Source: Patescibacteria group bacterium | GTDB taxonomy: Bacteria; Patescibacteriota; Patescibacteriia; Patescibacteriales; UBA12465 | Assembly: GCA_041650715.1 (NCBI GenBank) | Contig: JBAZKQ010000001.1 | Span: forward strand, 723,913-787,912 | Length of the DNA stretch: 64,000 nt | Direction of reading: 5' to 3' | Notes under the pieces: generated by a model | Database searches by the model: none | The model's input: the letters and a program-made list of their open reading frames with translations, nothing else | Told to the model about the DNA's origin: nothing | Part shown: positions 4,962 through 62,158 of the stretch, one piece after another | Layout of the letters: each line of letters starts with the position of its first letter | Numbering within the stretch: position 1 is the first letter of the stretch | Position numbers and translations under genes: made by a program

Positions 4962-4968
4962 GACTATT

Positions 4969-8353: not shown

Positions 8354-10180
8354 TTATCTTTTTAGTATTTTAACAAAAGTATCAGGGGGGATATCAACGC
8401 TTCCCTTGCCCGCCGCCATCATTTTTTTCTTGCCTTTTTTCTGTTTCTCGAGTAATTTGCGTTTCCGCGTTACGTCGCCGCCGTAAAGTTTAGCGGTTAC
8501 ATCTTTGCGCATCGCCGATAATTTATCGGCGGCGATAATTTTACCGTGGAGAGCCGCTTGAATTTTCACGGCAAACATTTGACGGGGTAAGTTATTTTTT
8601 AAAATATCGACGACTTCCCGCCCCTCCCGCATCGCGTCTTCGCGGTAAACGATAGTCGCCAAGGCTTCAATCGGTTCTTCGGCGACTAAAATATCCATGC
8701 GCACGACATCGGCCGGACGATACTCGAGATATTCATAGTTAATTGAGGCGTAACCCGAGGAGACACTCTTTATCTTATCATAAAAATCGGTTAAAATCGC
8801 GGCCATCGGTATTTCGTAATGCAGAATCACTCGCGCTTCATCGCTTTCCGCCGATATATATTCCGTATTTTTATAAATACCTTTCTTTTCTTGGGATAAT
8901 TTAATGATATTACCCATATAATTTTTGGGGGTAATAACATCCAAGCTCACCCAGGGTTCTTCTATGATATCAATATGTGTCGGATCGGGCAATCGCTGCG
9001 GTGTCCGAATTATCATTTCTTCGCCGCTGCTTTTAAGAACTTTATAAGCGACGCTCGGCACGGTCACGATTAAATCTAAATTATATTCTCGGCGCAGCCT
9101 TTCTTGAAAAACCTCGAGATGCAAGAGCCCTAAAAAACCACAACGAAAGCCGAAGCCGAGCGCGTCCGATCTTTCCGGCTCATATGATAAGGCGGCGTCA
9201 TTTAATTTTAATTTTTCCATGGCTTCGCGCAGTTCCTTAAAATCATTACCTTCGCGCGGGAAAATACCAGCGAAAACCATCGGCTTAACTTCTTTATAAC
9301 CAGAAAGAGCTTCAATTTTATTAAAATTAACTACTCCGGCCTTAGCCGTCATCGTATCGCCGACTCGGCAATCGCCGACGGTTTTAAAACCGGTAATAAC
9401 ATAGCCGATTTCGCCCGGTTCAAGCACGCCGGTCGATAAATAATCGGGCTTAAAAATCCCGCAGTCGAGTACTTCACTCTCCACCCGCATGGATAGCAGG
9501 CGAATTTTGTCGCCTTTCCTAATCGCCCCGTTAAAAACGCGAACATAAGCGACAACGCCCCGATAAATATCATATTTAGAATCAAAAATCAAAGCACGCG
9601 GATAATTATCCTGATCGCCGAGCGCATCTTCCTCCGGGGGTAAGCCTTTAGCAATCACTTCGTCTAAAACTGCCGCCACGCCTTCGCCCGTTTTTCCGGA
9701 ACAGCAAAATATTTCCTCTTCTTTGCAGCCCAAAAGCTTAATGATTTCCCGTTTTGTTTTTGGAACATCGGCCGCCGGCAAATCAATTTTATTAACCACC
9801 GGAATTATCGTTAAATTTTGTTCCATGGCCAAATATAAATTCGCCAGGGTTTGCGCTTGGATGCCTTGAGTACAATCGACCAAAAGAACGGCCGTCTCGA
9901 CGGCCGCGAGCGATCGGGAAACTTCGTAAGAAAAATCAACATGGCCGGGAGTATCAATCAAATCCAATTTATAACCCTTATAATCCATGGTCACCGGCTG
10001 CAATTTAATCGTTATTCCCCGCTCCCGCTCGATATCCATGCCATCCAGAATCTGATCTTTCATTTTTCGCTTATCGACTGTGCCGGTAATTTCAAGCATA
10101 CGATCGGCCAAGGTAGATTTGCCATGATCAATATGAGCGATTATGCAGAAATTTCTGATTTTTTTTATTTCTTCTATCAT
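8354..10180 (-). CDS. lepA: translation elongation factor 4 (LepA)
   Basis: 608 aa. IRNFCIIAHIDHGKSTLADRMLE G-domain and LepA-specific C-terminus. Confidence 0.95.
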   Translation of the reverse strand: MIEEIKKIRNFCIIAHIDHGKSTLADRMLEITGTVDKRKMKDQILDGMDIERERGITIKLQPVTMDYKGYKLDLIDTPGHVDFSYEVSRSLAAVETAVLLVDCTQGIQAQTLANLYLAMEQNLTIIPVVNKIDLPAADVPKTKREIIKLLGCKEEEIFCCSGKTGEGVAAVLDEVIAKGLPPEEDALGDQDNYPRALIFDSKYDIYRGVVAYVRVFNGAIRKGDKIRLLSMRVESEVLDCGIFKPDYLSTGVLEPGEIGYVITGFKTVGDCRVGDTMTAKAGVVNFNKIEALSGYKEVKPMVFAGIFPREGNDFKELREAMEKLKLNDAALSYEPERSDALGFGFRCGFLGLLHLEVFQERLRREYNLDLIVTVPSVAYKVLKSSGEEMIIRTPQRLPDPTHIDIIEEPWVSLDVITPKNYMGNIIKLSQEKKGIYKNTEYISAESDEARVILHYEIPMAAILTDFYDKIKSVSSGYASINYEYLEYRPADVVRMDILVAEEPIEALATIVYREDAMREGREVVDILKNNLPRQMFAVKIQAALHGKIIAADKLSAMRKDVTAKLYGGDVTRKRKLLEKQKKGKKKMMAAGKGSVDIPPDTFVKILKR

Positions 10181-10199
10181 TTATCAAATAATTTATAAA

Positions 10200-11846
10200 T
10201 TAAACTCCGCGGGCCTCACCCTGATCGCCAACTTTAAGCTTCCGGAAGGAAAAGCGCTTGCGCAGAGAACCGACCAGGCTAAAATATTCTTCACTTCTAA
10301 GCAAATAGCAGAAAAAGGCATAAATCAGCAGGCCGGCCGTAAAGGAGCTGAACAACTGTACAAAGACTCCGGTGAATTTTGTCATATCGATAAACGGCCA
10401 AACCACTATCTTCATTAATTGCGCCGCGGCCCCGGCGGCAATTGCGCTCGCCGTAAATTTTAGTACCGAACGTAAAATATTTTTAATATCCAAACTGCCG
10501 ACATGTAAAGACAACCAGACCCAGAGCAATAAGAAATTCAATATATTGGCAATTGAAAAAGCGAGCGCTAAACCGGCGACGCCCATGCGCGGGCCAAGAA
10601 TAAAGGAAAGGCCGATATTAAGAGCAACAGTAACAAGGCCAAGATAAAACGGCGTGGAAGAATTATGACGCGCGTAAAAAACTCGGATTAGAAGCGGGGT
10701 CGTCGCTTGGGCGAATAGACTCAAGGCAAAATAGCCGAGCGTATTCATCGTAAGAATCGTATCTTCCCAGTCGAACGCACCCGAACCCAAAACGACGCGG
10801 ATAATTTGCGCGCGCAGAGTAATTATTAAAACCGTGGCCGGCACGATAAAAAATAAAATCTGCCGAATTGTCTGCGAGAAATTTTCCGTTAATTCTTTTT
10901 TATTAAAAGCGGCCGCCGAGAGAGCCGGAAAAGCGGCGATGGCGAAAGAAATGCCGAAAATGCCGATGGGAAATGACTGTAAATTATTGGCCAAATTAAA
11001 AATCGACAAAGAACCGCTCGATAAACCCGAGGCAATAATCGTAATGACGACTAAATTAATCTGAGAAATCGCCAGACTTAAAGTGCGCGGCACCATCATG
11101 CGCCCAATCTTAATTGTATTAAGGTCCCGCCAAAAAATTATAAATTTATAGCGGAAGCCTAAATGATAAACTGAAGGGATTTGAATCGCCATATGCATAA
11201 ACGCACCCAAAACTACGCCCCAGGCCAAACCATCAAGCCCCCACCACTTCATAAAGTACAAAGCGCCGATAATGATGCCAATATTATAAAAGATTGGAGC
11301 CAGCGAATAAATCAAAAATCTTTTGAATGATTGCAAGACGCCGCCAAGCACACCGGACAAGCCAAGGAATAAGGGCGACAAAAACATAATGCGGGTTAGG
11401 GCCGCCGTTTTTAACTGCTCTTCCGGACCAAAACCAGGCGTTATTAAACGTGTTAAGAGAGGCGCAAAAATGATGCCGATAATAGATAAAGCCAATAAGC
11501 CAATAAACAAATAATTCAAAACATTATTCGCCAAGCCCCAAGCTTCTTTATTGCCATCGCTCGCAGCGCCGTCTTTTTTGGTTTCAACGGTAAAATCTTT
11601 AATCAGCCCGGTAAAAATCGGGACAAAACCGGCCGATAAAGCACCCAAAACAATAAGATTGAAAATTAAATCCGGTATACGAAAAGCGGCGTAGTATATG
11701 TCCAAAGTCGTGCTGGCACCAAATTGGCCGGCCAAAATACGGTCGCGGATAACGCCCAAAAGACGAGAGGCCAGCGAAGACAGGGCGACAAGGGCTGCGG
11801 CCACGGTAATACTATTGATTTGCTGATGGAAAAGCTTCCTAAACAT
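10200..11846 (-). CDS. murJ: lipid II flippase MurJ (MviN family)
   Basis: 548 aa polytopic membrane protein. The N-terminus (SRLLGVIRDRILAGQFGASTTLDIYYAAFRIPD) is typical of MurJ. Confidence 0.85.
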   Translation of the reverse strand: MFRKLFHQQINSITVAAALVALSSLASRLLGVIRDRILAGQFGASTTLDIYYAAFRIPDLIFNLIVLGALSAGFVPIFTGLIKDFTVETKKDGAASDGNKEAWGLANNVLNYLFIGLLALSIIGIIFAPLLTRLITPGFGPEEQLKTAALTRIMFLSPLFLGLSGVLGGVLQSFKRFLIYSLAPIFYNIGIIIGALYFMKWWGLDGLAWGVVLGAFMHMAIQIPSVYHLGFRYKFIIFWRDLNTIKIGRMMVPRTLSLAISQINLVVITIIASGLSSGSLSIFNLANNLQSFPIGIFGISFAIAAFPALSAAAFNKKELTENFSQTIRQILFFIVPATVLIITLRAQIIRVVLGSGAFDWEDTILTMNTLGYFALSLFAQATTPLLIRVFYARHNSSTPFYLGLVTVALNIGLSFILGPRMGVAGLALAFSIANILNFLLLWVWLSLHVGSLDIKNILRSVLKFTASAIAAGAAAQLMKIVVWPFIDMTKFTGVFVQLFSSFTAGLLIYAFFCYLLRSEEYFSLVGSLRKRFSFRKLKVGDQGEARGV

Positions 11847-29898: not shown

Positions 29899-29985
29899 AT
29901 TCTCTTCTGAAGATACCATAATTATATGATATTTTCGGGAAAGAAGCGAACAGGTGAACTGCCTGTTCGCGCTTTTTTTGAACTT
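29899..29985 (-). ncRNA. conserved intergenic element, copy A (hairpin plus second hairpin; no hammerhead core)
   Basis: Shares GUUCAA, a GCGAACAG(G)/(C)CUGUUCGC stem, CUUCUUUCCCGAAA, a covarying second hairpin and UUCAGAAGAGAA with 33568-33658. Starts 8 nt after the helicase stop. Confidence 0.55.
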
Positions 29986-29992: not shown

Positions 29993-32900
29993 CTATTTGA
30001 TTAACCCAGCGCGACGCAAGGCTTCAGCCATAGCGTCATTCGAAGTTCCGACTTTATCTTGCCAATTTTCTTGGCGCAACTGTTTCGGTTCTTCGTACGA
30101 AGTGTCATTTCCGAAATGATATTCCGATACATAGTATTTGACATCATTCGGATCGGCGCCACAAAAAAAATCTGAAGTTTCGCCAATAGACGACCAAACG
30201 TCGCTTAAATTGCGGCTAACTCGGGCGCGCCCGCAGGAAATTTCATGAGCATCAATTTTACGGGTCGGCAATTTAGACACATTATCCATAAATTGAAGCG
30301 CACGGTCAACGTCGTTTGCGAAAGCATTAAGCAAGTAAGCCGGAATATTATTGGCCCTTACTAAAGCGTCACGGTCGGCTTGGCGTGTTTTTAGAAGATC
30401 AACGAGTCCGGCGATAAAATTATTGGCCTCGTTAATCTTTACTTTAGCTTCCAAAAAATTAGCTTCATTACTCAGGCTACGTGCTTCGGAAACTAAATAA
30501 CGGAAACGGCTCGATTCTTCAGAAATTAATTCTAAGGATTGATTAGAAAAATGATTGCTAAAGTTATTTTCTGCTTCTTCAATCAATTCTCCCACTTCGC
30601 TGTTTTCCGAAAGCAAATTTGCCTTCAGCGTACGTAAGCCCTGTCTGCTTTCGCTTAGGAGCTCAGAAAAATTTTCCGCGTTTGCCCGTTCGACAACCTG
30701 AGAAATAATTCTTGTACTTTCAGTTTGGAATCTTTCAGTCATGGCAGTCCAGCCCCAGCTATACCAGGGTCTATCGGATTCCAAGAAAAATTCACCGCTC
30801 AGTAGCGCCCGCATCATACTTATTATCGCGGAGCGATTAGCAAGCTTTGCATCTTTAGAATCCTTATGAATGGCGAGGCGGAAACTATTACCACTCAGTG
30901 AGATATACGGAAAAGCATAAACTTTTTCTCCGTTATCTTTCTGGGCATATTCTAACGGCTGAAGCTCTTTCAGCAAAGCAACAAAACTTTCTCCGCTCTC
31001 TAACCAAGGAGCATTCCTCAGCTCGCTTTCCTTAATCCGCCACGCTTCTTCGAGGCGTCTATTTTCAAAATAAACGTTTACCTCGTCAAAGCTATCAAAA
31101 CTTGTATAAGAATCGACATACAGTCTCAGCTGACGACCACCGGCAAGACTTAAGGTGCCAATTTGGTTCTTAGCCTGCTCGGCATTGATACGAATTGCAG
31201 CCTGATTATTGTTATAGTTAACAGAAATTTCTTCACCATTAACTAAAATAGAGTCAGGATTATCAGCCAGCACTTTTGCTTCGAGCTCGGCGTCGATATT
31301 AGTAAGAAGAAAATCTTCTACCTTTATCTCAGCCAAACACTTTGCCGAAACAAGTTTCAATGAAACAAACTCTTGCCACTCCGATCGTTCGAACGGATAA
31401 ACAAAAATTTTCTCACCGGCACGACGATTTAATTCTTTGGCCCGCTTTATTATTTCGTTATCAGCGGCGGCGAATTCATAATTGTCTATGCTGTAACCAT
31501 AAGACAATTTATTCACCAGCCAATTACCAAAAATTTTAGCGGCCTCAGGATGATCCGGCGTTTCCAGAACTTCTTCTTTAACAAGCATGTCATTAAAGAA
31601 TGTCTGACGCGTCGAAACACAAACGTCTTTTTCCGAGTCAAATTTAGGACTTACTCCTTCTTCGACTTTAGCCAGTTGCGGAGCAACCTCGACTAACCAT
31701 GAAGTGTCCACGTTTGTGGCCATTGTGACAAGACGAAATATTCCGCGTCGGGTCGCGAGATCGAAGGGTTGTCCGACAATCCAATTTTTTCCGTTAACAA
31801 TGGATTCATTGGAAAGCCGACGAGAATAACCGTCGCCGTTTCTGTAATCCGACCATGAGCCCTGATATAAGTGCTCAACCATGCCGGCACAAAGTGCTTT
31901 TAGGATATCCTCCCTCTTTCCAGAACTCTGAAAAGAAGAAATTTTTCCTTTGAGCGCATTTGCCAGAAGCTGACGGCGATCACGTGCCTGATGATAGGCT
32001 TTCACGAAGACACCTTTTAAACGGCGTTCTTCGTTAGACATATTCCTGGCACCGCGGAAAACCGCGAGTTGCGCCATCGGGTCCGAATCTTCTTCCTTCG
32101 GACAGAAAGCCGGACGCCAAAGATCGACTGCATCCATTACATCGTCGCCGATTGTAACTTTACGAGCAGTTACTCCACCTTGTTCAAGAATAGCGGCGAT
32201 ATCAATAATATCGTCGACTACCCCGTACTTTTCCGCAGCGATAACCATGCGGCCATACTGAACAGAAATAGGCAGGCGAGAAACCTGACGCCCGATTGCA
32301 GTTACCAAACCGCTTTCGTCCATGCAACCAAGAGCTCTGAGAGCTTGCTTAGCCTCATGAATTTGATCTTGAGGCGGCTGATGGAAAAAATTTAATTCTT
32401 CGGCATCAATCTTAGCTTCGGCCAAACGTAAGACGGTTTGGTCGAGACGAACGCGTAGAATTTCGGCTTCCGGGAAGGCTAAACGATTTTCGTCGTCCGT
32501 TGGACAACAATCGATATAGACTCCCTCGCGGCAACGACCGGCCCGGCCTTTGCGTTGGGCGCGATCAGCTAGTGAAATCGCTTTCAGGAATAATCCTTCG
32601 ACGCCTTCATTAAGCTCGATACGACGCTCAGTCCCACCATCAACAACGGCATCAATATCCTCAATCGTAATCGAGGTCTGAGCGACGTTAGTGGCAATGA
32701 CACACTTGGGGCGACTATAGGAACGGAATACCCGATCCTGTTCGTCAGCTTCAAGTTCACCGTGCAGCGGCAGGATTTCGGCGTTGAGGCCATAGCTTTC
32801 CAGCTGGCTCCATAATTCACCGATTTCTTTTTTTCCCGGCTGAAAGGCTAAAACATTGCGACCCTCTTTAAGAAGACTGCTAATGTCCTGGCCCATGTTT

Positions 32901-33457
32901 CCGGAACTAACTTGCTCCTCAACCGGGTAACAACGACCGGGAATACTAATCACCGGTGCGTTGTTGAAATAAAGCGATAATTTTTCCGCTTCAAGTGTAG
33001 CGGACATAATTACCAATTTAAATTCGACGCCGCTTTCGATTTGGCGTTTCGACCAAGCAACGAGAACCTCCATATTGAGATTCCATTCGTGGACTTCGTC
33101 GAGCACCAGAATCTGGTGACGATGAGTGCCCATTAACTCTCTCACGAGAGCGAGGCCGTCCGTTACGAATAAGCAGCGCGTATTCGGTCCGTCCTGTTTT
33201 TCATAAGCAGTCCGGAATCCGATTTCGCTACCAAGTTCGCAATTACGTTCTTGGGCAACACGTTTCGCTACCGAGCGAGCGGCGAGACGACGCGGTTGAG
33301 TTACAACGAGAGAATATCCCTCGTCGAGCAAAAATTGCGGCACGCGGGTTGATTTCCCGGCGCCAGTTTCAGCGGTGATGATAACAACTGAATTGTTAAT
33401 CACTGAATTAATAATCTGGGCCCGGTAAGAATCCACGGGCAATTTCTGGTTTTTCAT
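29993..33457 (-). CDS. DEAH-box (HrpA/HrpB-like) ATP-dependent helicase with ~500-aa extra C-terminal region
   Basis: 1154 aa. TGAGKST Walker A, DEVHE motif II, SAT, QRKGRAGR motif VI, then an HA2/OB-like region to about aa 600. I could not assign the rest. Confidence 0.8.
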   Translation of the reverse strand: MKNQKLPVDSYRAQIINSVINNSVVIITAETGAGKSTRVPQFLLDEGYSLVVTQPRRLAARSVAKRVAQERNCELGSEIGFRTAYEKQDGPNTRCLFVTDGLALVRELMGTHRHQILVLDEVHEWNLNMEVLVAWSKRQIESGVEFKLVIMSATLEAEKLSLYFNNAPVISIPGRCYPVEEQVSSGNMGQDISSLLKEGRNVLAFQPGKKEIGELWSQLESYGLNAEILPLHGELEADEQDRVFRSYSRPKCVIATNVAQTSITIEDIDAVVDGGTERRIELNEGVEGLFLKAISLADRAQRKGRAGRCREGVYIDCCPTDDENRLAFPEAEILRVRLDQTVLRLAEAKIDAEELNFFHQPPQDQIHEAKQALRALGCMDESGLVTAIGRQVSRLPISVQYGRMVIAAEKYGVVDDIIDIAAILEQGGVTARKVTIGDDVMDAVDLWRPAFCPKEEDSDPMAQLAVFRGARNMSNEERRLKGVFVKAYHQARDRRQLLANALKGKISSFQSSGKREDILKALCAGMVEHLYQGSWSDYRNGDGYSRRLSNESIVNGKNWIVGQPFDLATRRGIFRLVTMATNVDTSWLVEVAPQLAKVEEGVSPKFDSEKDVCVSTRQTFFNDMLVKEEVLETPDHPEAAKIFGNWLVNKLSYGYSIDNYEFAAADNEIIKRAKELNRRAGEKIFVYPFERSEWQEFVSLKLVSAKCLAEIKVEDFLLTNIDAELEAKVLADNPDSILVNGEEISVNYNNNQAAIRINAEQAKNQIGTLSLAGGRQLRLYVDSYTSFDSFDEVNVYFENRRLEEAWRIKESELRNAPWLESGESFVALLKELQPLEYAQKDNGEKVYAFPYISLSGNSFRLAIHKDSKDAKLANRSAIISMMRALLSGEFFLESDRPWYSWGWTAMTERFQTESTRIISQVVERANAENFSELLSESRQGLRTLKANLLSENSEVGELIEEAENNFSNHFSNQSLELISEESSRFRYLVSEARSLSNEANFLEAKVKINEANNFIAGLVDLLKTRQADRDALVRANNIPAYLLNAFANDVDRALQFMDNVSKLPTRKIDAHEISCGRARVSRNLSDVWSSIGETSDFFCGADPNDVKYYVSEYHFGNDTSYEEPKQLRQENWQDKVGTSNDAMAEALRRAGLIK

Positions 33458-33567: not shown

Positions 33568-33658
33568 TTTCTCTTCTGAAAGCACCATTGGTAAATTTCA
33601 CTAATGATGATTTCGGGAAAGAAGCGAACAGTTTGAAAGTCTGTTCGCTCTTGAACTT
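33568..33658 (-). ncRNA. conserved intergenic element, copy B
   Basis: Paralog of 29899-29985. Lies between the DHH-motif gene stop (33727) and the helicase leader. Confidence 0.55.
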
Positions 33659-33726
33659 TTTTCTCATCCGATTTCGCTCTTAGAGATTAAAGCGCTCAAT
33701 TTAATGTCGAGAGATGACGAAAGGAT

Positions 33727-34575
33727 TTATGCCTGGGGTTTGTCGTAAGCCCCGGCAAAACCACGGCCAGCATCACCATAGGCCTGATAAAGACCGTTAG
33801 CAGCTGCCCAGCCGTTGGGATAAGTTGGCCGGCCTTCGGCCATTACGGCCTCACCGAGAAATTCGGCGACAACCGGTTTGGTACCGGACAGGTTCACCTT
33901 GTCCGGGAAACGTTTGTCTCCCTTTGCGAGATAAGGTGTGGCTGTCATGACTCCGGCCTCTACCAAAAATGGTATCGGACCCGAGTCGCGAACATCTGCT
34001 ACCTGGACACCGCCGAGCGTGACAGTTTTGGTCGGATTTTTCAGCTGCTGAACAGCGGCTTCGATTCCGGCCATAGCTTCGGCCTCCGAAGAAACGTTTT
34101 CACGTTTCATAATTTCGGGAAGACGCATGGCGAGAACTTCTTCAGCCGTAACACCAGGACACTGTCCCTGGTAGGCGGCGCCAAGACAGTGGTCTGCGGC
34201 AGCTATCACCCGGTCCTCCTGAGTTGGCTCAACTTCGAGATATTTCAGGAGTTGCCCCAATGAGGAAGCCTCGAGATACTGGCTTGGCGGTAAGCCGAAG
34301 CCAAAATTTCCTGGGTTATGATGGTCGCATTGCCCAACCATGACCAGCGAGCCGGCGGCTTTCGGAGAGCATTCAAAAATAATGCATTCCAAAGCCTCGG
34401 CGGCAGATTCGGTTGAATCCAGAACGAAGCCGTCGGCACGGTAGGCTGTCATTGGGTTGCACTTTTCGCCTGCAATTGTTGCCGTGGCTAAAAGTAAACC
34501 GTGCTGAGCGGCAATTTTGCGTGCTCTCTGCTCCTCGATGTCGGGAGCGCCGAAAATAATCACAATTTTATTCAT
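33727..34575 (-). CDS. DHH-motif protein (putative phosphoesterase), paralog 1
   Basis: 282 aa from MNKIVIIFGAPD. Contains QCDHHNPGN and AAADHC. It aligns by eye with ORF 34862..35632 (KIVIIFGAPD/KIFFIVPAND; CDHH/IDHH; SSLGQLLKYLEVE/SSIEQVAALLGVE; IAAADH/IAANDK). The track's upstream 17 codons fall inside the conserved leader hairpin, so I trimmed them. Confidence 0.6.
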   Translation of the reverse strand: MNKIVIIFGAPDIEEQRARKIAAQHGLLLATATIAGEKCNPMTAYRADGFVLDSTESAAEALECIIFECSPKAAGSLVMVGQCDHHNPGNFGFGLPPSQYLEASSLGQLLKYLEVEPTQEDRVIAAADHCLGAAYQGQCPGVTAEEVLAMRLPEIMKRENVSSEAEAMAGIEAAVQQLKNPTKTVTLGGVQVADVRDSGPIPFLVEAGVMTATPYLAKGDKRFPDKVNLSGTKPVVAEFLGEAVMAEGRPTYPNGWAAANGLYQAYGDAGRGFAGAYDKPQA

Positions 34576-34601
34576 TTTTTTCTTTTTTTCTCCGCGCACC
34601 A

Positions 34602-34656
34602 TTGCTCGGATTATTCTGTAACTCATAAATTATGAAATCCAAAATAATCCGGACAA
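34602..34656 (-). promoter_or_regulatory. conserved 5'-leader long hairpin, copy 1
   Basis: Arms 34602-34615 and 34643-34656 (minus strand UUGUCCGGAUUAUU / AAUAAUCCGAGCAA) enclose a 27-nt loop containing CAUAAUUUAUG. About 100 nt of leader is near-identical to 36580-36690. Confidence 0.6.
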
Positions 34657-34723
34657 TATGCTCCTTAAAAATGAAACAAATTTTTAGGTCTTTCTATTTC
34701 TATATTTTTCTATCAAAGAACAT

Positions 34724-34776
34724 TTCCATTTCGTCGTTTCCGACTCATCAGCACTGATACACATCAGTGGATGGAA
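34724..34776 (-). ncRNA. type III hammerhead ribozyme (HHR-1)
   Basis: Minus strand: UUCCAUC|CACUGAU-GUGU-AUCAGUG-CUGAUGA-GUCG-GAAA-CGAC-GAAA-UGGAA. All core invariants are present (C3-A9, G12-A14, A15.1:U16.1, C17, G10.1:C11.1). Stems I, II and III are 7, 4 and 6 bp. Confidence 0.9.
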
Positions 34777-34861
34777 GAGCAAGTTTAAACGGCTTGCTCT
34801 TTTGAACTTTTTTTTGCTGGCCAACGCCAATTACTCCGCAAAAGAGAGTATGATTTTGAAA

Positions 34862-35632
34862 TTATTTTTGCCAGAAAAATTCCAAAATCTTGACCTGGGT
34901 TTCTGGAGTGGGTTTTTCCACTCCCGAGAATCCATTCTTCGGATCACCACCGGCCCAGCGAGCGAATGTCGTTCCATCCTCAGTGAGAGCATAAAACTGC
35001 ATGTGCCGTGGACCGAAATAAATCCATTTTCCATTGAGGCCGTCAACGGTCAGAAGTTCAGCGTACTGACCAAAAATGCGGTCGGTAATTGCCGAAGTGG
35101 AGCCCTTTGGGCAACGGACAAACCATTTTTCGCCCCGGATTTCAGCCGACCGGATATCAGCTACTGCTTGGGCCTCTTGATCAGGAGTGACGCCCTGCGA
35201 CAAGCGGTCTTGGGCACGAACAATTTTAATTTCGTTTTCAGTTGCGCCCATCGCCCTTAATGCCGGAATGTATCCTTTATCATTGGCGGCGATAAGGAGT
35301 TGATGGTGAGTAAGTTCTACTCCCAAAAGAGCGGCCACCTGCTCGATTGAGGATTTTTCGTTGAAACGATTTTCATCACGGTAAATGTGATGATCAATAT
35401 TAATTGCGTTCCAACGAGCGAGCCCGCCCAGTTCAACCCCGTAAATCACGGCCGAAGGATTAGCGGATAAAACTCCCTCAACTTTTTCAACCACGGTTTG
35501 TTCTAACCTGGCCCAGGTTGCTCCCCAGGCTTGACGGGTAACTACGTGACTGATTTTAGCGGCCTGAAGAATTTTACGGATTTCTACCGCTTCGCCATCA
35601 TTAGCTGGCACTATGAAAAAAATTTTTTCCAT
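34862..35632 (-). CDS. DHH-motif protein (putative phosphoesterase), paralog 2
   Basis: 256 aa. Contains NIDHH and AANDKGY. Start is coupled to the upstream stop (UAAUG). Confidence 0.6.
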   Translation of the reverse strand: MEKIFFIVPANDGEAVEIRKILQAAKISHVVTRQAWGATWARLEQTVVEKVEGVLSANPSAVIYGVELGGLARWNAINIDHHIYRDENRFNEKSSIEQVAALLGVELTHHQLLIAANDKGYIPALRAMGATENEIKIVRAQDRLSQGVTPDQEAQAVADIRSAEIRGEKWFVRCPKGSTSAITDRIFGQYAELLTVDGLNGKWIYFGPRHMQFYALTEDGTTFARWAGGDPKNGFSGVEKPTPETQVKILEFFWQK

Positions 35633-36063
35633 TACACAAAGTTTAATTGGCCACCAAGCTCATAAGCAACGGCGTCCTGGTTGGTTAAAACTTTTATCTC
35701 TTCGGCGAGCGAAGCTAAGTTCTTCCGAACTTTACTGGCTATGCCTATACCCCAGAGAATCCAAATATATTCAATTTGAACCACTCCGTTTTCGGATAGT
35801 ACCCACATACCGCTAGCCGGGGTTTCATTGCTGAACCCCAAACTCTTAGCATGTTCACGTAGCTTCTGGACGTGCTCGGTTGCCACCGGCTCACCAGTTT
35901 TTTGTAGAGTTGGGATATATAGGGCATCCCGTCCCCCTTTAAATTCTTCTCCGAGTTCCGAAAGTTCTTCAGTGGAATATGTCCACCAACCGATTTCCGG
36001 TTCAAGAGTACACCCACCAGCTCTAAGAGCCGCCTCAAGAGGCGACTTTGCTAAATATTTCAT
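35632..36063 (-). CDS. hypothetical protein (143 aa)
   Basis: The ORF starts 24 nt after HHR-2 and its stop overlaps the next start. No motif recognised. Confidence 0.55.
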   Translation of the reverse strand: MKYLAKSPLEAALRAGGCTLEPEIGWWTYSTEELSELGEEFKGGRDALYIPTLQKTGEPVATEHVQKLREHAKSLGFSNETPASGMWVLSENGVVQIEYIWILWGIGIASKVRKNLASLAEEIKVLTNQDAVAYELGGQLNFV

Positions 36064-36087
36064 CTACCGCGTTGTTTTAATGAACAT

Positions 36088-36140
36088 TTCCGTTTCGTCG
36101 TTTCCGACTCATCAGCACCGACATACATCGGTTGACGGAA
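36088..36140 (-). ncRNA. type III hammerhead ribozyme (HHR-2)
   Basis: Minus strand: UUCCGUC|AACCGAU-GUAU-GUCGGUG-CUGAUGA-GUCG-GAAA-CGAC-GAAA-CGGAA. Core and stem II are identical to HHR-1. Stems I and III carry compensatory changes. Confidence 0.9.
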
Positions 36141-36180
36141 GAGCAAGTTTGAACGACTTGCTCTTTTTTGAACGCCCTTG

Positions 36181-36579
36181 CTATTTAGCCTTGGGCCGAA
36201 AATCCAAGTACTCGAACTCCACTTCCAAAAAAGTGAGTTGAGTTGTTGACTGGCCCAATTTTTTCGCGGTCCTTTTCAGAACCTTGAGAGTCGCGGCTTT
36301 GTAGGCCGCTAATTCGGTGTATTCCGGATTACATTCGCCAGTGATGGCGACTGTAATTTCACCTCCGACAGGGCAGCCCCAGTCTTTGTGATAAACCGTG
36401 CGCGCCGACGTAATCACGGCTCCAACATAGGTGCCGTATTTTTTCATAACTGCGGCCGCTGATTGCTGCCATGCTTTTGCAGCGATTTCCACTGCATTGT
36501 CGGCAGTAATCACTGCATTGTCGTGGCCATAGCCTGCAACAACTCCCAGGCTGGCAAAAAATTTACTGGTTTTTTTCAT
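36181..36579 (-). CDS. hypothetical protein (132 aa)
   Basis: ORF preceded by the conserved leader hairpin and an A-rich tract. No motif recognised. Confidence 0.55.
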   Translation of the reverse strand: MKKTSKFFASLGVVAGYGHDNAVITADNAVEIAAKAWQQSAAAVMKKYGTYVGAVITSARTVYHKDWGCPVGGEITVAITGECNPEYTELAAYKAATLKVLKRTAKKLGQSTTQLTFLEVEFEYLDFRPKAK

Positions 36580-36606
36580 TTTTTTCTTTTTTCGTCCGCG
36601 ACACCA

Positions 36607-36661
36607 TTGTCCGGATTATTCTGTAGTCCATAAATTATGAAATTCAAAATAATCCGGACAA
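36607..36661 (-). promoter_or_regulatory. conserved 5'-leader long hairpin, copy 2
   Basis: Perfect 14-bp arms at 36607-36620 and 36648-36661 (UUGUCCGGAUUAUU / AAUAAUCCGGACAA). Confidence 0.6.
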
Positions 36662-36719
36662 TATGATCCACAAAAAATGAAAAATCTTTTTCGACTATTC
36701 AATTTCAAAGAACTTTTTT

Positions 36720-37668
36720 TCCTCTACCTAATCTAATTAATCTATTCTGAGGAAGTTCCCGAGTCCCAAGCTTGTTCAAGGCTTAATGGCTCGGCCGATC
36801 TCCTCATAAGAGACGGTCACGATTGTCGCTTTTCTCCGAGCCTTTTCTCCTTTCGGAAATACGGCCACAAGATACTTGGATCGCCTGCGCCCTTGATTAT
36901 AGTTTGCGACATAATCTCGGGATCAGCTCGACTAACCGTTTATTCTTTCCGGTCCGTAGGCCACGAAAGAAGCAAACGAATGAGCGCTTGCTGGTCTTAG
37001 GAAATGAACTCTCTCCCTGACTCGCAATTTTTGCGAGCAGATGTTAATTCATCTTAATCTCCTAAAATCGACACTAATCGCTCGATAATTTTTTTATTAT
37101 TTATGTACGATAGATTATTCCTTAATCTAATTAGGAGAACGGTTTAACCGCCGTTCTTTCGGCTCTCCGCTAAGCGGATAGTGATGAAGGGGAGAAACGA
37201 ATACATTATTTTGTGGCGCGCATGGGGCTGCACCGCTCTCTCTCCTCTCCATTACTATTCACTCAACAAAAAACTCTCTATTATGGAGAGAGCAAAGTTC
37301 CTATATATGCGGGCGCGCCTTAGCTTAATCAAGCCTCTGCGCTCACGTATATATCTTGGTTTTAAATAATGGCTCTCTCCTTCCATTACTTTTCTATTTG
37401 TAAATGTTCGTCTCGACTTCTCGCCCGGCTCTTGGCCTGGGCATTAGCGGAGACTGGGTCTCTCTTATCTTATTGATAAGGGATGGCCACTCGCCGTTAA
37501 GGCTTTCCCTGTTCTTACCCTTCGGATTGGACTACCACCATGCTCTCTCCTTCATAATGGTCGTCACTCTAACCCAGCTAAGTATAGAATCGGGGAGTGA
37601 TATCTCTTTATTAATGAATGTACTGGGATGTGTCCGAATGTCTCTTTGCCTTTTCTCACTTTCGATAC
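36720..37668 (-). ncRNA. candidate large structured non-coding RNA or long leader (no ORF of 60 aa or more on this strand)
   Basis: Lies downstream of the minus-strand promoter at 37701-37673. Dense local hairpins. Three GGAGAGAG-containing repeats (plus coordinates 37538-37560, 37367-37390, 37233-37256) and a complementary GCUCUCUCC (37285-37293). Class unknown. Confidence 0.45.
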
Positions 37669-37672
37669 TAAC

Positions 37673-37701
37673 AGTTTAGCATAGATATTTAATCTTGTCA
37701 A
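37673..37701 (-). promoter_or_regulatory. sigma70-like promoter facing the GC-rich block
   Basis: Minus strand TTGACA (37701-37696), 17-nt spacer, TAAACT (37678-37673). Confidence 0.55.
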
Positions 37702-37911: not shown

Positions 37912-38700
37912 ATGAACGAAAAAATCTTAATTAGTCTCGGTTTAAGCGGTGTACAAGCAGAGGTTTTTAGTTGCCTGCTCCAAAACGGACCGCAAAAAGC
38001 CAGTGATATCGCCAAATTAACCAAGCGCCCCCGCGGTGTCGCCTACAAAGGCTTAGAGGAATTGATTAGCTTGGGTCTGGCCAATAAAAAAGAAGCAAAG
38101 GCCGGTATAGCTGTCTTCGCGGCTGAGCACCCCTCGAATCTCGAGAAGGTCATAGAACAAAAAGAAAAAGACCTGGCTAAAACCAAGTCTGCTTTTGCGA
38201 GCTCCCTGCCCGATCTGATATCGACTTTCAATCTTGTCAGCAATAAGCCAGGAGTTAGATTTTATGAGGGGGAGGAAGGAATTAAAAAATCCCTGGAAGA
38301 TACCTTAAATTGCCAAGACATAATTTATACTTTTGCTGACATCGAGGCCGTTGAAAAAAACGTCAAAGAAATTAATGACGCTTACGCTAAAAAGAGGGAG
38401 AAGGCACAAATTAAAAAAAGAGTTATCGTCGCCGATACTCCTTTTAATCGCTCTTATTTAAAAAATTATAATGGCACTATTACCGAGTTTCGTTTTCTCC
38501 CCAAAGATTTTTACAGTTTTAACAGCGGCGTGCAAATTTATGAAAATAAAGTTTCTTATCAAGTAATTTCGGCGGAGAATAAGATGGCTATTATTATTGA
38601 AGACAAAAATATATACCAAATGAATAAGCTTTTATTTGAGTTTATCTGGGAAAAATTGGCAACTAAAATTAATGATTCTTCTCAAACGCCAAATACCTAA
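37912..38700 (+). CDS. TrmB-family HTH transcriptional regulator (paralog 1)
   Basis: 262 aa. N-terminal wHTH (LGLSGVQAEVFSCLLQNGPQKASDIAKLTKRPRGVAYKGLEELISLGL). The shared block PGVRFYEGEEGIKKSLEDTL matches ORF 52657..53430. Confidence 0.75.
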   Translation: MNEKILISLGLSGVQAEVFSCLLQNGPQKASDIAKLTKRPRGVAYKGLEELISLGLANKKEAKAGIAVFAAEHPSNLEKVIEQKEKDLAKTKSAFASSLPDLISTFNLVSNKPGVRFYEGEEGIKKSLEDTLNCQDIIYTFADIEAVEKNVKEINDAYAKKREKAQIKKRVIVADTPFNRSYLKNYNGTITEFRFLPKDFYSFNSGVQIYENKVSYQVISAENKMAIIIEDKNIYQMNKLLFEFIWEKLATKINDSSQTPNT

Positions 38701-41182
38701 TATTTCCCTGGGGTTCTTCATCCTTATCATAAAAATAACGCGTTAAAGTATATTTCCCCTTCTTCGCTTCCAGCTCCCGTCCCTCATCATCAACCTTGGG
38801 TAATAATTCACTCAAGGTTTTTTGATAGTCGGCCATCTCGGAATTTAAATCAAAACGCAAAACAAAAGTTTCGCGGCCAATTAAATCTTTTAACTCCACG
38901 CAGCTTTGCGCCGCCATTTTTAACTCACTAATCGTCAACGGACCGTCCTTCCCTTCCGGTCTAAGAGTATAATTTGAGTTGTTCTCTTTATCCAATTTTA
39001 TATTATATAAGCTTTCGCCGGTCTGATGATAATTCTCAATGATCCCGTTAGCCACAAAACCAATTTTTTCGACATAAGAACAACCCGCCGGAATTTTTAT
39101 GGAAGCAGTTGCCTCTAAAACATTATCGTCCCCTTCTCTCATTAAGGCTTTTTCCATCAGGTCATTGCCAATTGCTAAACCACGCAAATCTTTAGAAACA
39201 TTAAACGACCCGGCATAAACAGTGCTCCGGTCAGTTTTTTCAAAACGAACGAAACCGATTGCCTCATCTTTAAACTTTAAAATATAAGCCCGTTGGTTTT
39301 TATCATTTTCCAAAGCTTCCTCCAATCCGGACAGAGCCACCTTGGCCATTTTATCGTTGCCAAAATTATTCCAATTAGCTTCAGCCATTTCCAAAACCTC
39401 TTTCTTGTCTTTTTCGTTTATACCTTCACCGTAATCATTGACCTGTAAACTTAAATCTCGGGCCGATTCAATATTGAACTCTTTTTGATATTTCTTAATT
39501 GACTCTAAAAGGCCCGCTAAAATAGTTATTTCCGATTTATTATTGTTAAGATTATGCAGGAGCGCATCAAAATTTTTATTTTTGTTGTCCGCCAATTCTT
39601 CAATAATTTTCGCCGACTTCTGGAGTAAAACCTGACGCAAACCATTAACGGTATCGTCTTCAACACTTGTACCGCTCTTAAAAAACAGCGGAATTAGATC
39701 ATTAATCTTCTGTGTGGTAAGTTCATTTATCTTACTGATTGCCGAGAAAACCGCGCTTGCCTTTTCCGGAGCTATCCTATTGCCCAGACCCAACTCGATT
39801 ATCTTTTCACCGAGATTATTGCCCCGCTCCATGGCTAAAAACGTTTTTAGGCCATCAATGCCATAGCGTCCGACAAATTCTTTTAATTTCTGTTCATCTT
39901 TTATTTCCGATGTATAATTAGCGATTAAAATTTGTTCCGACCAAGACAATTCCCTAATTGGAGTTTTTGTTTCTAAAAATAAAGACCGAAAACGATTATG
40001 GACAAAATTTACATCATTGAGGTTAGACAAACGATCGGCATATTCTTCGACGGATTCTTGCGGCCGTTTCGGAAAATGGTCTGAAACATGATAAGGTTTA
40101 ATCCGCTCCTTCATATGTTCGGCTGGAATAGTCCGAAAAACATCCCGTTTGTCGGCAAAAGAAAAGTCTTTATATTCCGGCTCGGATAATTTATTAAAAG
40201 TGTATAAGATTTTTTCTCGGCCATGGCTTGTCTCCGTAATACCCATTAAATCTTTGGCTAGTTCCACTGCCTTAATGTCGGGCGTTATCTCCTTGTCTGT
40301 TCCGGTTATCTTATTACGGCCAATATAATATCTAACTAATTTATTATTTTCTCCAGAAATATTAACATAGGGGTTGGATCCGCCAAATTTGCGGTCATGC
40401 GAAAAAGACACGGCGGCCGACTCGGAATCAGTGGGTCGAGTTTTTAAATCTTCATTTTTAAATAGATTTAACGAGTCAATCGTCGGTAAGAATTTTTTAA
40501 TAAAAATCGTGGGGGTTCCCTCAAATGAATATTTCTTTCCATCCGCGACAAAAGTTATTCTGCGATTAAACAACTCTCGTGATTTTTTGAACGCAAAATC
40601 ATTAGTCTGCCCGTTTTTGGGATCAGTATATTCTAAATTTCCTTTTTCATTACGACGCAAATCAATTTCTTTAAACTTCTGTAAATAATATAATTCAGCT
40701 AATGATATATTGTTACCATCATCCAATTTAAGTTGGCTAGAAAATTCCGGCCGCTGACCAATTTCCCACGGCTTAATTATACCTTTAGAGAAATCGCCCC
40801 TCTTAGCATCTTCAATGTTGTTAGGGAGCGAAAGGAGCGGCTTTCCCGCCTGGGCGGCTGCACCATTATCGTCGCTCGCATCTTTCGCTAATCCCTTTTT
40901 ATCCCTTAAATAGTCTAAAATATCCTGATAATTTAAATAGTGTCTTCCCCCGTTTTGATTAATTGATTTGTTTATAAAACGATCGGACATTTTAAAGCCT
41001 CCGAGTGCATCGAGGTCAAACCGCTCTGCGCCATCCTCTCCGGAAATAATACCTAATTGTCTAAACTTTTTATCGACATCAGAAAAAATCAAGTCGCGAT
41101 CAAACCCGTCTGGTTGGTTCCCTGACTCGGCTTTTGAAATATCTGGCGCAATTACCTCATTTTTCAACATATATTGAATCAA
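38669..41182 (-). CDS. large hypothetical protein with GNAT-like acetyltransferase domain near the C-terminus
   Basis: 837 aa with no signal peptide or TM helix. AYILKFKDEAIGFVRFEK...VSKDLRGLAIGNDLMEKAL...GFVANG resembles the GNAT motif A region. The first ~620 aa are unassigned. Confidence 0.55.
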   Translation of the reverse strand: MIQYMLKNEVIAPDISKAESGNQPDGFDRDLIFSDVDKKFRQLGIISGEDGAERFDLDALGGFKMSDRFINKSINQNGGRHYLNYQDILDYLRDKKGLAKDASDDNGAAAQAGKPLLSLPNNIEDAKRGDFSKGIIKPWEIGQRPEFSSQLKLDDGNNISLAELYYLQKFKEIDLRRNEKGNLEYTDPKNGQTNDFAFKKSRELFNRRITFVADGKKYSFEGTPTIFIKKFLPTIDSLNLFKNEDLKTRPTDSESAAVSFSHDRKFGGSNPYVNISGENNKLVRYYIGRNKITGTDKEITPDIKAVELAKDLMGITETSHGREKILYTFNKLSEPEYKDFSFADKRDVFRTIPAEHMKERIKPYHVSDHFPKRPQESVEEYADRLSNLNDVNFVHNRFRSLFLETKTPIRELSWSEQILIANYTSEIKDEQKLKEFVGRYGIDGLKTFLAMERGNNLGEKIIELGLGNRIAPEKASAVFSAISKINELTTQKINDLIPLFFKSGTSVEDDTVNGLRQVLLQKSAKIIEELADNKNKNFDALLHNLNNNKSEITILAGLLESIKKYQKEFNIESARDLSLQVNDYGEGINEKDKKEVLEMAEANWNNFGNDKMAKVALSGLEEALENDKNQRAYILKFKDEAIGFVRFEKTDRSTVYAGSFNVSKDLRGLAIGNDLMEKALMREGDDNVLEATASIKIPAGCSYVEKIGFVANGIIENYHQTGESLYNIKLDKENNSNYTLRPEGKDGPLTISELKMAAQSCVELKDLIGRETFVLRFDLNSEMADYQKTLSELLPKVDDEGRELEAKKGKYTLTRYFYDKDEEPQGNIRYLAFEKNH

Positions 41183-61582: not shown

Positions 61583-61656
61583 GGGCAATTAGCTCAGTTG
61601 GTTAGAGCGCAACACTGATAATGTTGAGGTCGGAGGTTCGAATCCTCCATTGCCCA
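61583..61656 (+). tRNA. tRNA-Ile(GAU)
   Basis: GGGCAAT/ATTGCCC acceptor stem, anticodon loop CTGATAA, T-loop GGTTCGAATCC. Confidence 0.9.
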
Positions 61657-61680
61657 CTCTAAAGTATAGTTGATAATTAT

Positions 61681-61753
61681 AGCGGGATAGAGCAGTTGGC
61701 AGCTCGCTAGGCCCATAACCTAGAGGTCGTCGGTTCGAGTCCGACTCCCGCAA
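61681..61753 (+). tRNA. tRNA-Met(CAU), initiator-type
   Basis: Anticodon loop CCCATAA. An A1/A72 mismatch at the top of the acceptor stem and A73. The body is close to what I recall of E. coli tRNA-fMet (GAGCAG..GCTCG...AGGTCGTCGGTTCGA.TCCG.C.CCCGCAAC). Confidence 0.8.
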
Positions 61754-61777
61754 CAAGTTTAACAATAGTATTTTCAT

Positions 61778-62092
61778 GCCTCGGTAGCTCAGTGGTAGAG
61801 CAAAGGACTGGTTTTCGGTCCGCTCAATGGAAACATTGAGATGAAAATCGGGTGAATTCGGGGAAGCCTTAATTTAGAAATAAAAAAGGTAATCCCGAGC
61901 CAAGCTTTAATTGGGTAAATAATTAAAGAAGGTGTAGAGACTAGCGGGTGAGCCCAACAATAACCCCGCCGCGAGCGCCCGACTCCGTCCTTAAAAATTA
62001 AGCGGAGATGATATAGTCCGATCCTTAAGGAAACTTAAGTTGTAGCAAGGAAAATCCTTGTGTCGTCAGTTCGATTCTGACCCGGGGCACCA
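61778..62092 (+). tRNA. tRNA-Phe(GAA) interrupted by a group I intron; CCA encoded
   Basis: Exons 61778-61809 and 62050-62092 join to GCCUCGGUAGCUCAGUGGUAGAGCAAAGGACU|GAAAAUCCUUGUGUCGUCAGUUCGAUUCUGACCCGGGGCACCA. This makes a normal cloverleaf with anticodon GAA. Confidence 0.85.
61810..62049 (+). ncRNA. group I intron (IC3-like) in the tRNA-Phe anticodon loop
   Basis: P1 pairs exon GGACU with the intron guide GGUCC (61817-61821), with a U.G wobble at the 5' splice site. The intron ends in G. Core strings AAUUCGGGGAAGCCUUAA, AAUCCCGAGCCAAGCU and GAAGGUGUAGAGACUAG match tRNA-borne IC3 introns (Azoarcus tRNA-Ile, cyanobacterial tRNA-Leu) as I recall them. Confidence 0.85.
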
Positions 62093-62103
62093 ATCAGTAG
62101 ATA

Positions 62104-62153
62104 AAAAAGTGAACCCATGATATAATTATACTGTTACCGTGGGTTCACTTTTT
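62104..62153 (+). terminator. long hairpin plus T-run after the tRNA cluster
   Basis: AAAAAGTGAACCCA ... TGGGTTCACTTTTTT. The loop contains TGATATAAT, an extended -10-like sequence. Confidence 0.6.
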
Positions 62154-62158
62154 TATTT

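Follow-up and report, generated by a model that had tools for sequence, protein, structure and literature searches.

Gene content of the locus

The stretch of DNA considered here (64,000 nucleotides of contig JBAZKQ010000001.1 from a Patescibacteria group bacterium, hereafter "the window") carries on its minus strand a gene cluster in which two open reading frames (ORFs), ORF-A and ORF-B, encode proteins with a DHH motif and are separated by a hammerhead ribozyme. The window is core chromosome of the Patescibacteria type (with genes for RpoB/C, PolA, RuvC, FtsK, LepA, MurJ, RecJ and T4SS-pilin-like proteins), and the closest homologues are named Paceibacterota, Parcubacteria or Minisyncoccia. 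Read 5' to 3' along the minus strand, the cluster comprises a promoter, a leader, a homologue of lyases that destroy SAM-AMP (S-adenosylmethionine-AMP), a hammerhead, the p143 gene together with ORF-B, a second hammerhead, ORF-A, a degenerate hairpin, a helicase gene and a terminator-like hairpin (Table 1). Three of these cistrons are related to the lyase or to the phosphodiesterase NrN, the two kinds of enzyme known to break SAM-AMP down, and it is the relationship of ORF-A and ORF-B to NrN that is mainly at issue.

Both ORFs lie on the minus strand where the first-pass annotation had put them, and all of the peptides it had quoted for their resemblance are indeed present in the products (KIVIIFGAPDIEE / KIFFIVPANDGEA; QCDHHNPGN / NIDHHIYRD; SSLGQLL...AAADHC / SSIEQVA...AANDKG). 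An upstream ATG at 34626 would provide ORF-A with an alternative product of 299 aa, the extension of which is a translated copy of the conserved 5' leader hairpin; the start at 34575, as initially chosen, was kept and is likely the true one.

Table 1. Features of the gene cluster and of its immediate surroundings (positions counted from the first nucleotide of the window).
Feature	Position	Strand	Description
Terminator-like hairpin	29946..29970	.	3' of the helicase gene; T-run follows on the + strand, - strand tail T-poor
HrpA/HrpB-like DEAH helicase	29993..33457	minus	1154 aa; closes the cluster; TIGR01970 match (5.5e-89) falls short of the curated cut-off
Degenerate hairpin-only module remnant	33603..33675	minus	between ORF-A and the helicase gene; 19 bits, E=0.039
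ORF-A	33727..34575	minus	282 aa; putative NrN-like DHH-type phosphodiesterase; founder of "family A", a large sister family lacking annotation
Palindromic hairpin leader element	34596..34652	minus	~28-bp arms; directly upstream of the ORF-A start
Hairpin + type III hammerhead module	34715..34825	minus	between ORF-B and ORF-A; hairpin GAGCAAG/CTTGCTC; core 34723..34777; predicted cleavage after AUC
ORF-B	34862..35632	minus	256 aa; predicted orthodox NrN-family phosphodiesterase
p143	35632..36063	minus	143 aa; TAA stop overlaps the ORF-B ATG by 1 nt (TAATG)
Second hairpin + hammerhead module	36079..36189	minus	between the lyase gene and p143
SAM-AMP-lyase homologue	36181..36579	minus	132 aa; Mvol_0529 family, CorA-associated cluster 96
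Same palindromic leader element	36606..36662	minus	directly upstream of the lyase start
Structured non-coding leader, ~0.9 kb	within 36760..37701	minus	between the TrmB and lyase genes, behind the promoter
Promoter	37701..37673	minus	TTGACA-17-TAAACT
TrmB-family regulator	37912..38700	plus	divergent; conserved neighbour in ~15 Patescibacteria loci
837-aa protein with C-terminal GNAT domain	38669..41182	minus	conserved neighbour of the TrmB gene

ORF-B and ORF-A as members of the NrN branch

SAM-AMP is an immune second messenger that was discovered only recently (2023). NrN, a DHH-family phosphodiesterase encoded beside the CorA effector in CRISPR loci of type III (III-B and III-D), degrades it (PMC10600005), and ORF-B matches the NrN entries of the PDB (9lq9/9lqa/9lqc) at E=1.5e-19 when a single sequence is used and at E=1.9e-41 with its family profile. 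Among the PADLOC models, ORF-B is recognized by C3a116 ("cluster 29 [CorA] associated"; 1.3e-35) and DHH_CorA (1.1e-32), CorA-associated models that trace to Shah et al. (PMC6546367), who surveyed the accessory genes of type III systems. A protein 44% identical to ORF-B (P0172) sits in a type III-D locus (L148) together with Cas10, Csm4, Cas7, RT-Cas1, Cas2 and a CorA detected at 2.4e-53, and the CorA-associated NrN score of ORF-B (121.6 bits) is close to that of this CRISPR-embedded relative (129.1 bits); by the available models, ORF-B cannot be told apart from a CRISPR-linked NrN. The AlphaFold model of ORF-B, built on the family alignment (predicted local distance difference test score, pLDDT, 95.2), retrieves NrN 9lqa-c as the top Foldseek matches in the PDB (template modelling score, TM, 0.79-0.82; 28-30% identity; E~5e-20), followed by PAP phosphatase 8a8k (1.4e-7), NrnA 5ipp (5.9e-6), PggH 7d62 (1e-5) and RecJ (4e-4). 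Taking sequence and predicted structure together, ORF-B can be considered a bona fide NrN, having the same length (~260 aa) and, as modelled, the same fold as the Bacteroides fragilis enzyme (PDB 9lq9-9lqc; cluster 116, "C3a116").

ORF-A is the more distant of the two. The first-pass annotation had aligned both products by eye over their N-terminal ~150 aa, and a pairwise BLASTP comparison (25% identity over 154 aa, E=0.07) is not significant on its own. Homologues of both were compared as families (455 matches were gathered for ORF-A and 224 for ORF-B, 99 and 82 of which, respectively, were aligned as family profiles), and hhalign connects the two profiles with a probability of 98.8% and E=1.3e-16. 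Because this alignment spans 229 columns, the homology is not only real, as had been supposed, but also nearly full-length, extending well beyond the ~150 aa originally proposed. At a profile identity of 21%, ORF-A and ORF-B are ancient paralogues representing two distinct families, with no recent duplication involved.

For the active sites, ORF-A, ORF-B, distant family-A members and the N-domain of one natural fusion protein were aligned with B. fragilis NrN and the CRISPR-embedded P0172; eight functional columns are invariant (NrN numbering: D19, E21, E70, D85-H86-H87, Q99 and D119). The catalytic-residue equivalents are D12/E14, D80-H81-H82 and D118 in ORF-B, and D12/E14, D84-H85-H86 and D128 in ORF-A, so that all of the residues that have been probed experimentally in NrN or mutated in its deposited structures (DHH, E21, D119) are kept in both: the D85/H86/H87 triple mutation abolishes NrN function (Chi et al., PMC10600005), and E21A and D119A are, per the PDB titles, the mutants of the ligand complexes 9lqa-c. 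The residues conserved within the ORF-B family are N11-D12, E14, E67, D80-H81-H82, Q98 and N117-D118, and those within family A are D12, E14, E68, D84-H85-H86, S104-S105-G107-Q108 and D128-H129, further ones being C69/C130/C139, Y266 and R271-G272-F273-A274-G275.

It had been remarked earlier that the DHH tripeptide and a later Asp recall the DHH-family phosphoesterases, and rightly so: both fall into columns invariant across the two families, and the fold matches agree. The canonical DxD motif I, the absence of which had likewise been noticed, is missing because motif I reads D-x-E in the NrN clade (E21 of NrN); of the other superfamily motifs, both ORFs have III and IV, without variation, and the motif II position is a Glu (E67/E68) instead of an Asp, again as in NrN. 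With the canonical DHH/DHHA1 enzymes (NrnA, GdpP, PggH, PAP phosphatase, RecJ; PF01368/PF02272), the two-domain architecture, the DHH of motif III, the Asp of motif IV and a Gly-rich C-terminal motif are held in common. The resemblance is at the level of the fold for ORF-B (E=1e-7 to 1e-4, with TM of only 0.4-0.6) and weak for ORF-A (E>=0.04), whereas neither ORF matches a single Pfam family even at E<=10, and neither is matched in NCBIfam or PHROGs. As RecJ encoded elsewhere in the window (6395..8224) is readily detected by the Pfam DHH (2.5e-24) and DHHA1 (2.6e-11) models, the negative Pfam outcome for both ORFs is informative, and the initial suspicion of a distinct family holds at the level of hidden Markov models (HMMs). 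The comparison of predicted structures with NrnA and RecJ cores, also suggested at the outset, places these enzymes after NrN for ORF-B; the DHH/DHHA1 two-domain fold is thus matched directly by the ORF-B model, and by that of ORF-A only via NrN plus weak matches. Judged on the structural models, both ORFs belong to the DHH-type phosphoesterase fold class.

For ORF-A, the AlphaFold model (pLDDT 95.9, built on the family alignment) has NrN as its best structural match (E=2e-6), beyond which Foldseek found no significant match in the PDB (family II pyrophosphatase at 0.038 and RecJ-Cdc45 at 0.11), while BFVD gave weak matches to phage "DHH phosphohydrolases" (3e-3 to 0.25). The family-A profile matches NrN marginally, over the N-terminal half (E=7.6e-5). 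Compared with NrN, ORF-A has the same catalytic residue set, yet differs from it by insertions after the DHH and Asp motifs, by three conserved Cys and by escaping the PADLOC NrN HMM. Family A has conserved blocks of its own (DHHxPGDxGYGxPP, EASSLGQ, AAADHCLxAAYxGxCPGV and YGDPxRGFAG, in addition to the three Cys) and is far from small, as a threshold of E<=1e-3 gives 1,719 cluster representatives (50% identity) and one of E<=1e-30 gives 1,129, spread over Patescibacteria, many Proteobacteria and 56 IMG/VR viral contigs. ORF-A stands for a large unnamed sister family of NrN that keeps the whole catalytic residue set.

The lyase homologue, p143 and the helicase

The 132-aa product of the first cistron matches SAM-AMP lyase in the PDB (9gad/9gab, 9lqd) over its full length (residues 1-125, E=1.4e-19), and its E74, within WGCPVGGE, aligns with the WGCPENGE of the Clostridium botulinum lyase, the catalytic residue of which is E71 (PMC12255297). 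It is also matched, at 2.5e-25, by the PADLOC model Mvol_0529-fam, which goes back to Shah et al. (PMC6546367) as "CorA-associated cluster 96".

Judging by the overlap of stop and start codons, p143 and ORF-B are probably translationally coupled. The p143 family comprises 49 clusters and is adjacent to, coupled with or fused to an ORF-B-type NrN at every locus examined; the seven p143-bearing loci examined have either a Patescibacteria-type context (the window, L003, L012, L151 and L152, loci fetched for comparison being given L numbers here) or belong to the same small-contig sets as the ORF-B homologues. No PDB match was obtained for p143 with either the single sequence or the profile, and hhalign of p143 against the lyase family was negative (probability 0.85%). 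Pfam S-AdoMet_lyase weakly matches 3 of the 33 p143 members (E>=0.029), which is at most an inconclusive hint.

The helicase carries a C-terminal extension of ~400 aa, and helicase genes of this kind are also linked to NrN (B) or family-A genes in L004, L012, L014 and L151.

Hammerhead ribozymes

The hammerhead that had been seen between the two ORFs is real, with a complete core and covariation, the Rfam Hammerhead_3 model matching this copy with 41.4 bits (E=1e-6), under the gathering score of 48.5; the second copy is mis-aligned by that model. Both nevertheless possess the full core (CUGAUGA...GAAA and an NUH cleavage site) and three stems. When seven copies from the window, L003 and L004 were aligned together with the conserved upstream 7-bp hairpin, 99.4% of the cells in the 23 pairs were paired, compensatory changes were seen in six pairs, and none of 500 shuffles reached the covariation score.

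The search with a covariance model took in 575 kb, made up of the window and 32 fetched loci (those of Patescibacteria and several from Proteobacteria, phages, mobile elements and CRISPR systems). For the ~120 further loci that had been fetched, mostly viral and proteobacterial ones, the coverage is that of a stricter motif scan only. Strong copies were found in the window (2), L003 (3), L004 (3), L151 (2), L152 (1) and L033 (1, just upstream of a family-A gene), all of them in the intercistronic gaps of this operon, and no strong hammerhead was found elsewhere in the 575 kb. The strict motif scan of 151 sequences (the window and 150 fetched loci), which misses the second copy of the window that the covariance model finds along with the first, returned hammerheads only in the window, L003 and L004. 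Compared with the type III hammerheads (RF00008) that Perreault et al. 2011 (PMC3088659) describe between genes of bacteria and phages, the complete core, the three stems, the open stem III and the placement between co-oriented genes are the same, whereas the type seen here is a compact variant under the Rfam gathering score, always stands behind the conserved 7-bp hairpin and is repeated two to three times per operon.

Because the hammerheads also flank cistrons unrelated to the DHH enzymes (lyase, helicase, and genes for 285-aa and 126-aa proteins), they look like an RNA-processing device of the operon and not like a source of substrate for those enzymes. Most likely, they would cut the polycistronic RNA into separately stable mRNAs, each upstream piece of which would end in a hairpin and a 2',3'-cyclic phosphate.

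The leader and the palindromic elements

The leader behind the promoter is conserved at the nucleotide level in L003 and L151 and partially in L004 and L152. Its minimum free energy (-289 kcal/mol) is lower than that of shuffled sequences (-236+/-10 kcal/mol; z=-5.4), and compensatory changes occur in 15 of the 72 alifold pairs of its 3' domain (four sequences). It holds four GGAGAGAG motifs and a terminator-like hairpin at 37293..37273, the CUCUCUCC arm of which can alternatively pair with an upstream GGAGAGAG (inverted repeat 37279-37294 / 37541-37556). Such an architecture appears attenuator- or riboswitch-like; no Rfam family matches the ~0.9-kb leader.

The two palindromic elements are near-identical to one another (arms ATTGTCCGGATTATT...AATAATCCGGACAAT, followed by GGTG(T)CGCGGA..GAAAAAAAGAAAAAAATGAA), occur in L003 and L004 as well, and contain a promoter-like TTGTCC-16-CATAAT. 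They could serve as an operator (perhaps for TrmB) or as an internal promoter, or else form a hairpin in the RNA.

Comparative loci, fusions and mobile elements

A family-profile search of the fetched loci uncovered a conserved Patescibacteria locus, in which the genes for the GNAT-domain protein and the divergent TrmB regulator are followed downstream by a variable operon. This operon has family A alone in L001, L005-L011, L014 and L073, lyase-p143-B in L003 and L152, and lyase-p143-B plus a helicase-like gene in L151; L004 has a single 529-aa fusion of a B-like and an A protein (9251..10840) followed by a helicase gene, L012 (Absconditabacterales) has a p143::B fusion (3147..4376) followed by a helicase gene, with A 2.5 kb downstream, and the window has all of the genes (lyase, p143, B, A and helicase). 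L012, a 676-kb contig, needs genetic code 25 (UGA=Gly), as its family-A gene breaks into fragments under code 11. Independent fusion proteins are also present in the protein database (P0293, B::A, 526 aa; P0149, p143::B, 416 aa), and the fusions chain p143-B-A in an order matching the genes of the window. The B::A fusions suggest that proteins of the ORF-B and ORF-A types work together, possibly as an ORF-A/ORF-B heterodimer. The ties among the genes themselves, and between them and the lyase homologue, come from operon structure, translational coupling, fusions and locus swapping.

NrN homologues were also seen on terminase-bearing phage contigs (L084, 9998..10789; L086, 9950..10801) and on a mobilisable element with Mob_Pre (L149, 8001..8819), those of L084 and L149 being recognized by PADLOC C3a116 at ~1e-36 to 1e-41. 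By analogy with the phage lyase proposed as AcrIIIB4, these homologues are candidate SAM-AMP-degrading anti-CRISPRs. A tblastn search of 50,697 phage genomes with both proteins gave no match, whereas IMG/VR contigs did match. Neighbour clustering brought out no conserved neighbour of the proteobacterial or viral family-A members; its ORF-based form was used for family A in the low-G+C Patescibacteria loci only, given the spurious antisense ORFs in high-G+C Proteobacteria.

Other features of the window

The G+C content between 32000 and 36000 is 0.47-0.48, as compared with 0.38-0.44 in the flanks, and coincides with the helicase/ORF-A/ORF-B part of the cluster; it could be a sign of lateral origin. 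Farther away, T4SS_pilin-like domains are encoded in three consecutive genes (277, 456 and 342 aa; 1858..5997, plus strand) interleaved with genes for pyruvate:ferredoxin oxidoreductase subunits, and a pair of neighbouring tRNA genes (61583..61656 and 61681..61753) is followed, 48 nt farther downstream, by a group I intron (Rfam, 93 bits, 61801..62040), with a further tRNA gene at 62843..62913 (the whole spanning 61583..62913 on the plus strand).

Proposed function and alternative explanations

The explanation that we favour, with reasonable though by no means full confidence, is that ORF-A and ORF-B are NrN-branch enzymes of a CRISPR-independent module destroying SAM-AMP-type nucleotide conjugates. 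Judging by their relatives and conserved residues, both would most likely hydrolyse such conjugates, with the lyase and NrN attacking the two ends of SAM-AMP (the methionine and the phosphodiester ends, respectively). ORF-A would probably handle a related substrate or product, be it SAM-AMP2 (described as a second CorA-linked signal; PMC13294483), the lyase product MTA-AMP (methylthioadenosine-AMP) or a cognate conjugate, and might possibly act as a partner of ORF-B or form a heterodimer with it. The substrate might come from the cell's own CorA/type III system, encoded at some other place in its genome (the module then being the off-switch of that system), be met in counter-defence, or stem from an undiscovered pathway, and the biological role would be one of signal clearance or counter-defence.

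Several differences set this module apart from the known systems. ORF-A and ORF-B are not beside corA or cas genes within the window, in contrast to the homologue in L148; ORF-B has a novel 143-aa protein as its partner, either as a neighbour or in a fusion; and the lyase and NrN co-occur, although they have been described as alternatives in CRISPR loci. Similarly, the lyase homologue of the window, in comparison with the SAM-AMP lyases (C. botulinum 9gab/9gad and the candidate AcrIIIB4), is encoded together with, and not instead of, NrN-type enzymes, and outside a CRISPR locus. The ring nucleases and viral signal degraders (Crn1-4, Csx3, AcrIII-1, Acb1 and Apyc1) would be analogous in being dedicated phosphodiesterases that clear nucleotide immune signals, or intercept them, in cells and phages, yet their folds are unrelated and their substrates are cyclic oligoadenylates or cyclic nucleotides.

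A number of observations weigh against the proposed destruction of SAM-AMP-type conjugates. Searches of the ORFs in the 64-kb window with Pfam and PADLOC found no cas10, corA or other cas gene and no known SAM-AMP synthase. ORF-B is just 30% identical to B. fragilis NrN, which does not fix its substrate specificity, and ORF-A is both without a match among the Pfam, NCBIfam, PHROGs or PADLOC models and less similar to NrN in fold (TM ~0.5) than ORF-B. Proteobacterial members of family A lie in ordinary metabolic neighbourhoods, and family A adjoins nucleotide-metabolism genes in phage-like contigs, either of which would fit a more general nucleotide substrate too. A housekeeping role in RNA or nucleotide metabolism could, moreover, be read from the chromosomal position, which many Patescibacteria share, and from the link with an RNA helicase.

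Of the alternatives, the one that fares best concerns the biological role and leaves the molecular function just proposed as it is: the cluster might be a counter-defence (anti-CRISPR-like) island, whose mobile-element-derived lyase, NrN and NrN-like genes would destroy the SAM-AMP made by CorA-type type III CRISPR systems, aimed either at the element now resident at the locus or belonging to the host cell of the symbiont. The ORF-B homologues on terminase-bearing phage contigs and on the Mob_Pre element, the occurrence of family A on IMG/VR contigs, the phage SAM-AMP lyase proposed as AcrIIIB4 (PMC12255297), the locally raised G+C content and the cassette content that differs between relatives would all be in line with this. 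On the other hand, the genes around the cluster are those of FtsK, Mur ligase, RpoBC and the TrmB regulator, with no integrase, phage or plasmid gene next to it; the chromosomal position of the cluster is the same across divergent Patescibacteria, and the sequenced phage genomes searched yielded nothing. We hold such an origin to be possible yet on the unlikely side.

Somewhat more doubtful still is a housekeeping role in RNA or nucleotide turnover, in which the two enzymes, as nanoRNases similar to NrnA or pAp phosphatase, would finish RNA decay or salvage nucleotides together with the DEAH helicase, their likeness to NrN reflecting ancestry only. The DHH-fold relatives do include NrnA, PggH and PAP phosphatase, the HrpA/B-like helicase is linked to these genes in five loci including the window, the place beside TrmB/GNAT is conserved in ~15 Patescibacteria loci, and family A occurs elsewhere in metabolic or nucleotide-metabolism contexts. 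This has to be set against the near-equal scores of ORF-B and the CRISPR-embedded NrN on the CorA-associated models, the failure of B. fragilis NrN to cut pApA and the cyclic oligoadenylates cA2-6 (PMC10600005), the variable gene content at the locus, which is unlike that of a core pathway, and the presence in the same operon of a SAM-AMP-lyase homologue, for which there is no place in nanoRNA turnover.

The first-pass annotation had speculated that the enzymes process the 2',3'-cyclic-phosphate or 5'-OH ends left by the adjacent hammerheads. The confinement of the hammerheads to this operon, both in the window and in five related loci (including L033 with its family-A-only gene), and the RNA helicase linked to the cluster may speak for such a connection, which has nevertheless found no support and is very improbable. 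In the loci searched with the ribozyme model, no hammerhead lies near those A or B members that are not part of a Parcubacteria-type operon (namely in L148 with its type III-D/CorA CRISPR genes, the mobilisable elements L149/L150, Rhodanobacteraceae L143, the phage contigs L084-L086 and L144-L145, and other Patescibacteria loci), and within these operons the ribozymes flank the lyase, helicase and unrelated genes too. The specific relatives of the two enzymes, moreover, are SAM-AMP phosphodiesterases acting on a small-molecule signal, the characterized homologue cutting a small-molecule phosphodiester and releasing 5'-AMP (PMC10600005); there is no cyclic phosphodiesterase among the DHH enzymes matched structurally, and a SAM-AMP-lyase homologue shares the operon. 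Lastly, that ORF-A and ORF-B are unrelated proteins with merely a DHH tripeptide in common, as the insignificant BLASTP comparison and the silence of Pfam DHH might suggest, is already refuted by the profile alignment, by NrN being the best structural match of both models, by the eight invariant columns and by the natural B::A fusions, leaving this reading with virtually no probability.

Significance

To our knowledge, the SAM-AMP degraders described to date (NrN, DEDD nucleases and SAM-AMP lyase) come from CRISPR loci of the CorA-type type III kind, apart from one phage lyase. In a literature search, neither family A nor p143 turned up, and the same holds for NrN/lyase operons that stand alone and for NrN homologues on phages or otherwise outside CRISPR loci; nor was a paper on the NrN crystal structures found. 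What seems to be new is, first of all, a conserved operon of ultra-small symbiotic bacteria that joins a lyase homologue, a predicted orthodox NrN and an NrN-like enzyme without cas or corA genes in the 64-kb window; second, a large unannotated NrN-like family (~1,700 clusters at 50% identity) that is common on phage contigs as well; and third, NrN homologues carried by bona fide phages and mobilisable elements. ORF-B is, as far as the sequences can tell, a new NrN member in a new context, and ORF-A the representative of a new sister family. With these proteins there are concrete candidates that can be tested as new signal-clearing or anti-CRISPR enzymes, as well as candidate substrates other than SAM-AMP (SAM-AMP2, MTA-AMP), and the locus offers a natural example of hammerheads and a long structured leader organizing the expression of such a module.

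That the lyase homologue and the two NrN-type genes stand together in a window without CRISPR genes hints that the chemistry of the SAM-AMP signal also serves, or is countered, away from CRISPR loci. A much bolder picture, which we put forward as a long shot, is that Patescibacteria (and, via family A, also many bacteria and phages) handle SAM-AMP-type conjugates outside CRISPR loci, the operon being a three-enzyme catabolic or interception pathway (lyase, NrN and NrN-like enzyme, with p143 and the DEAH helicase) that is switched by a 0.9-kb attenuator-type leader, maybe one sensing a ligand. Its role would then be either to shield the episymbiont from a CorA-type signal or to serve some other SAM-nucleotide signalling, and family A would constitute a new and widespread class of signal-degrading (anti-defence) enzymes.

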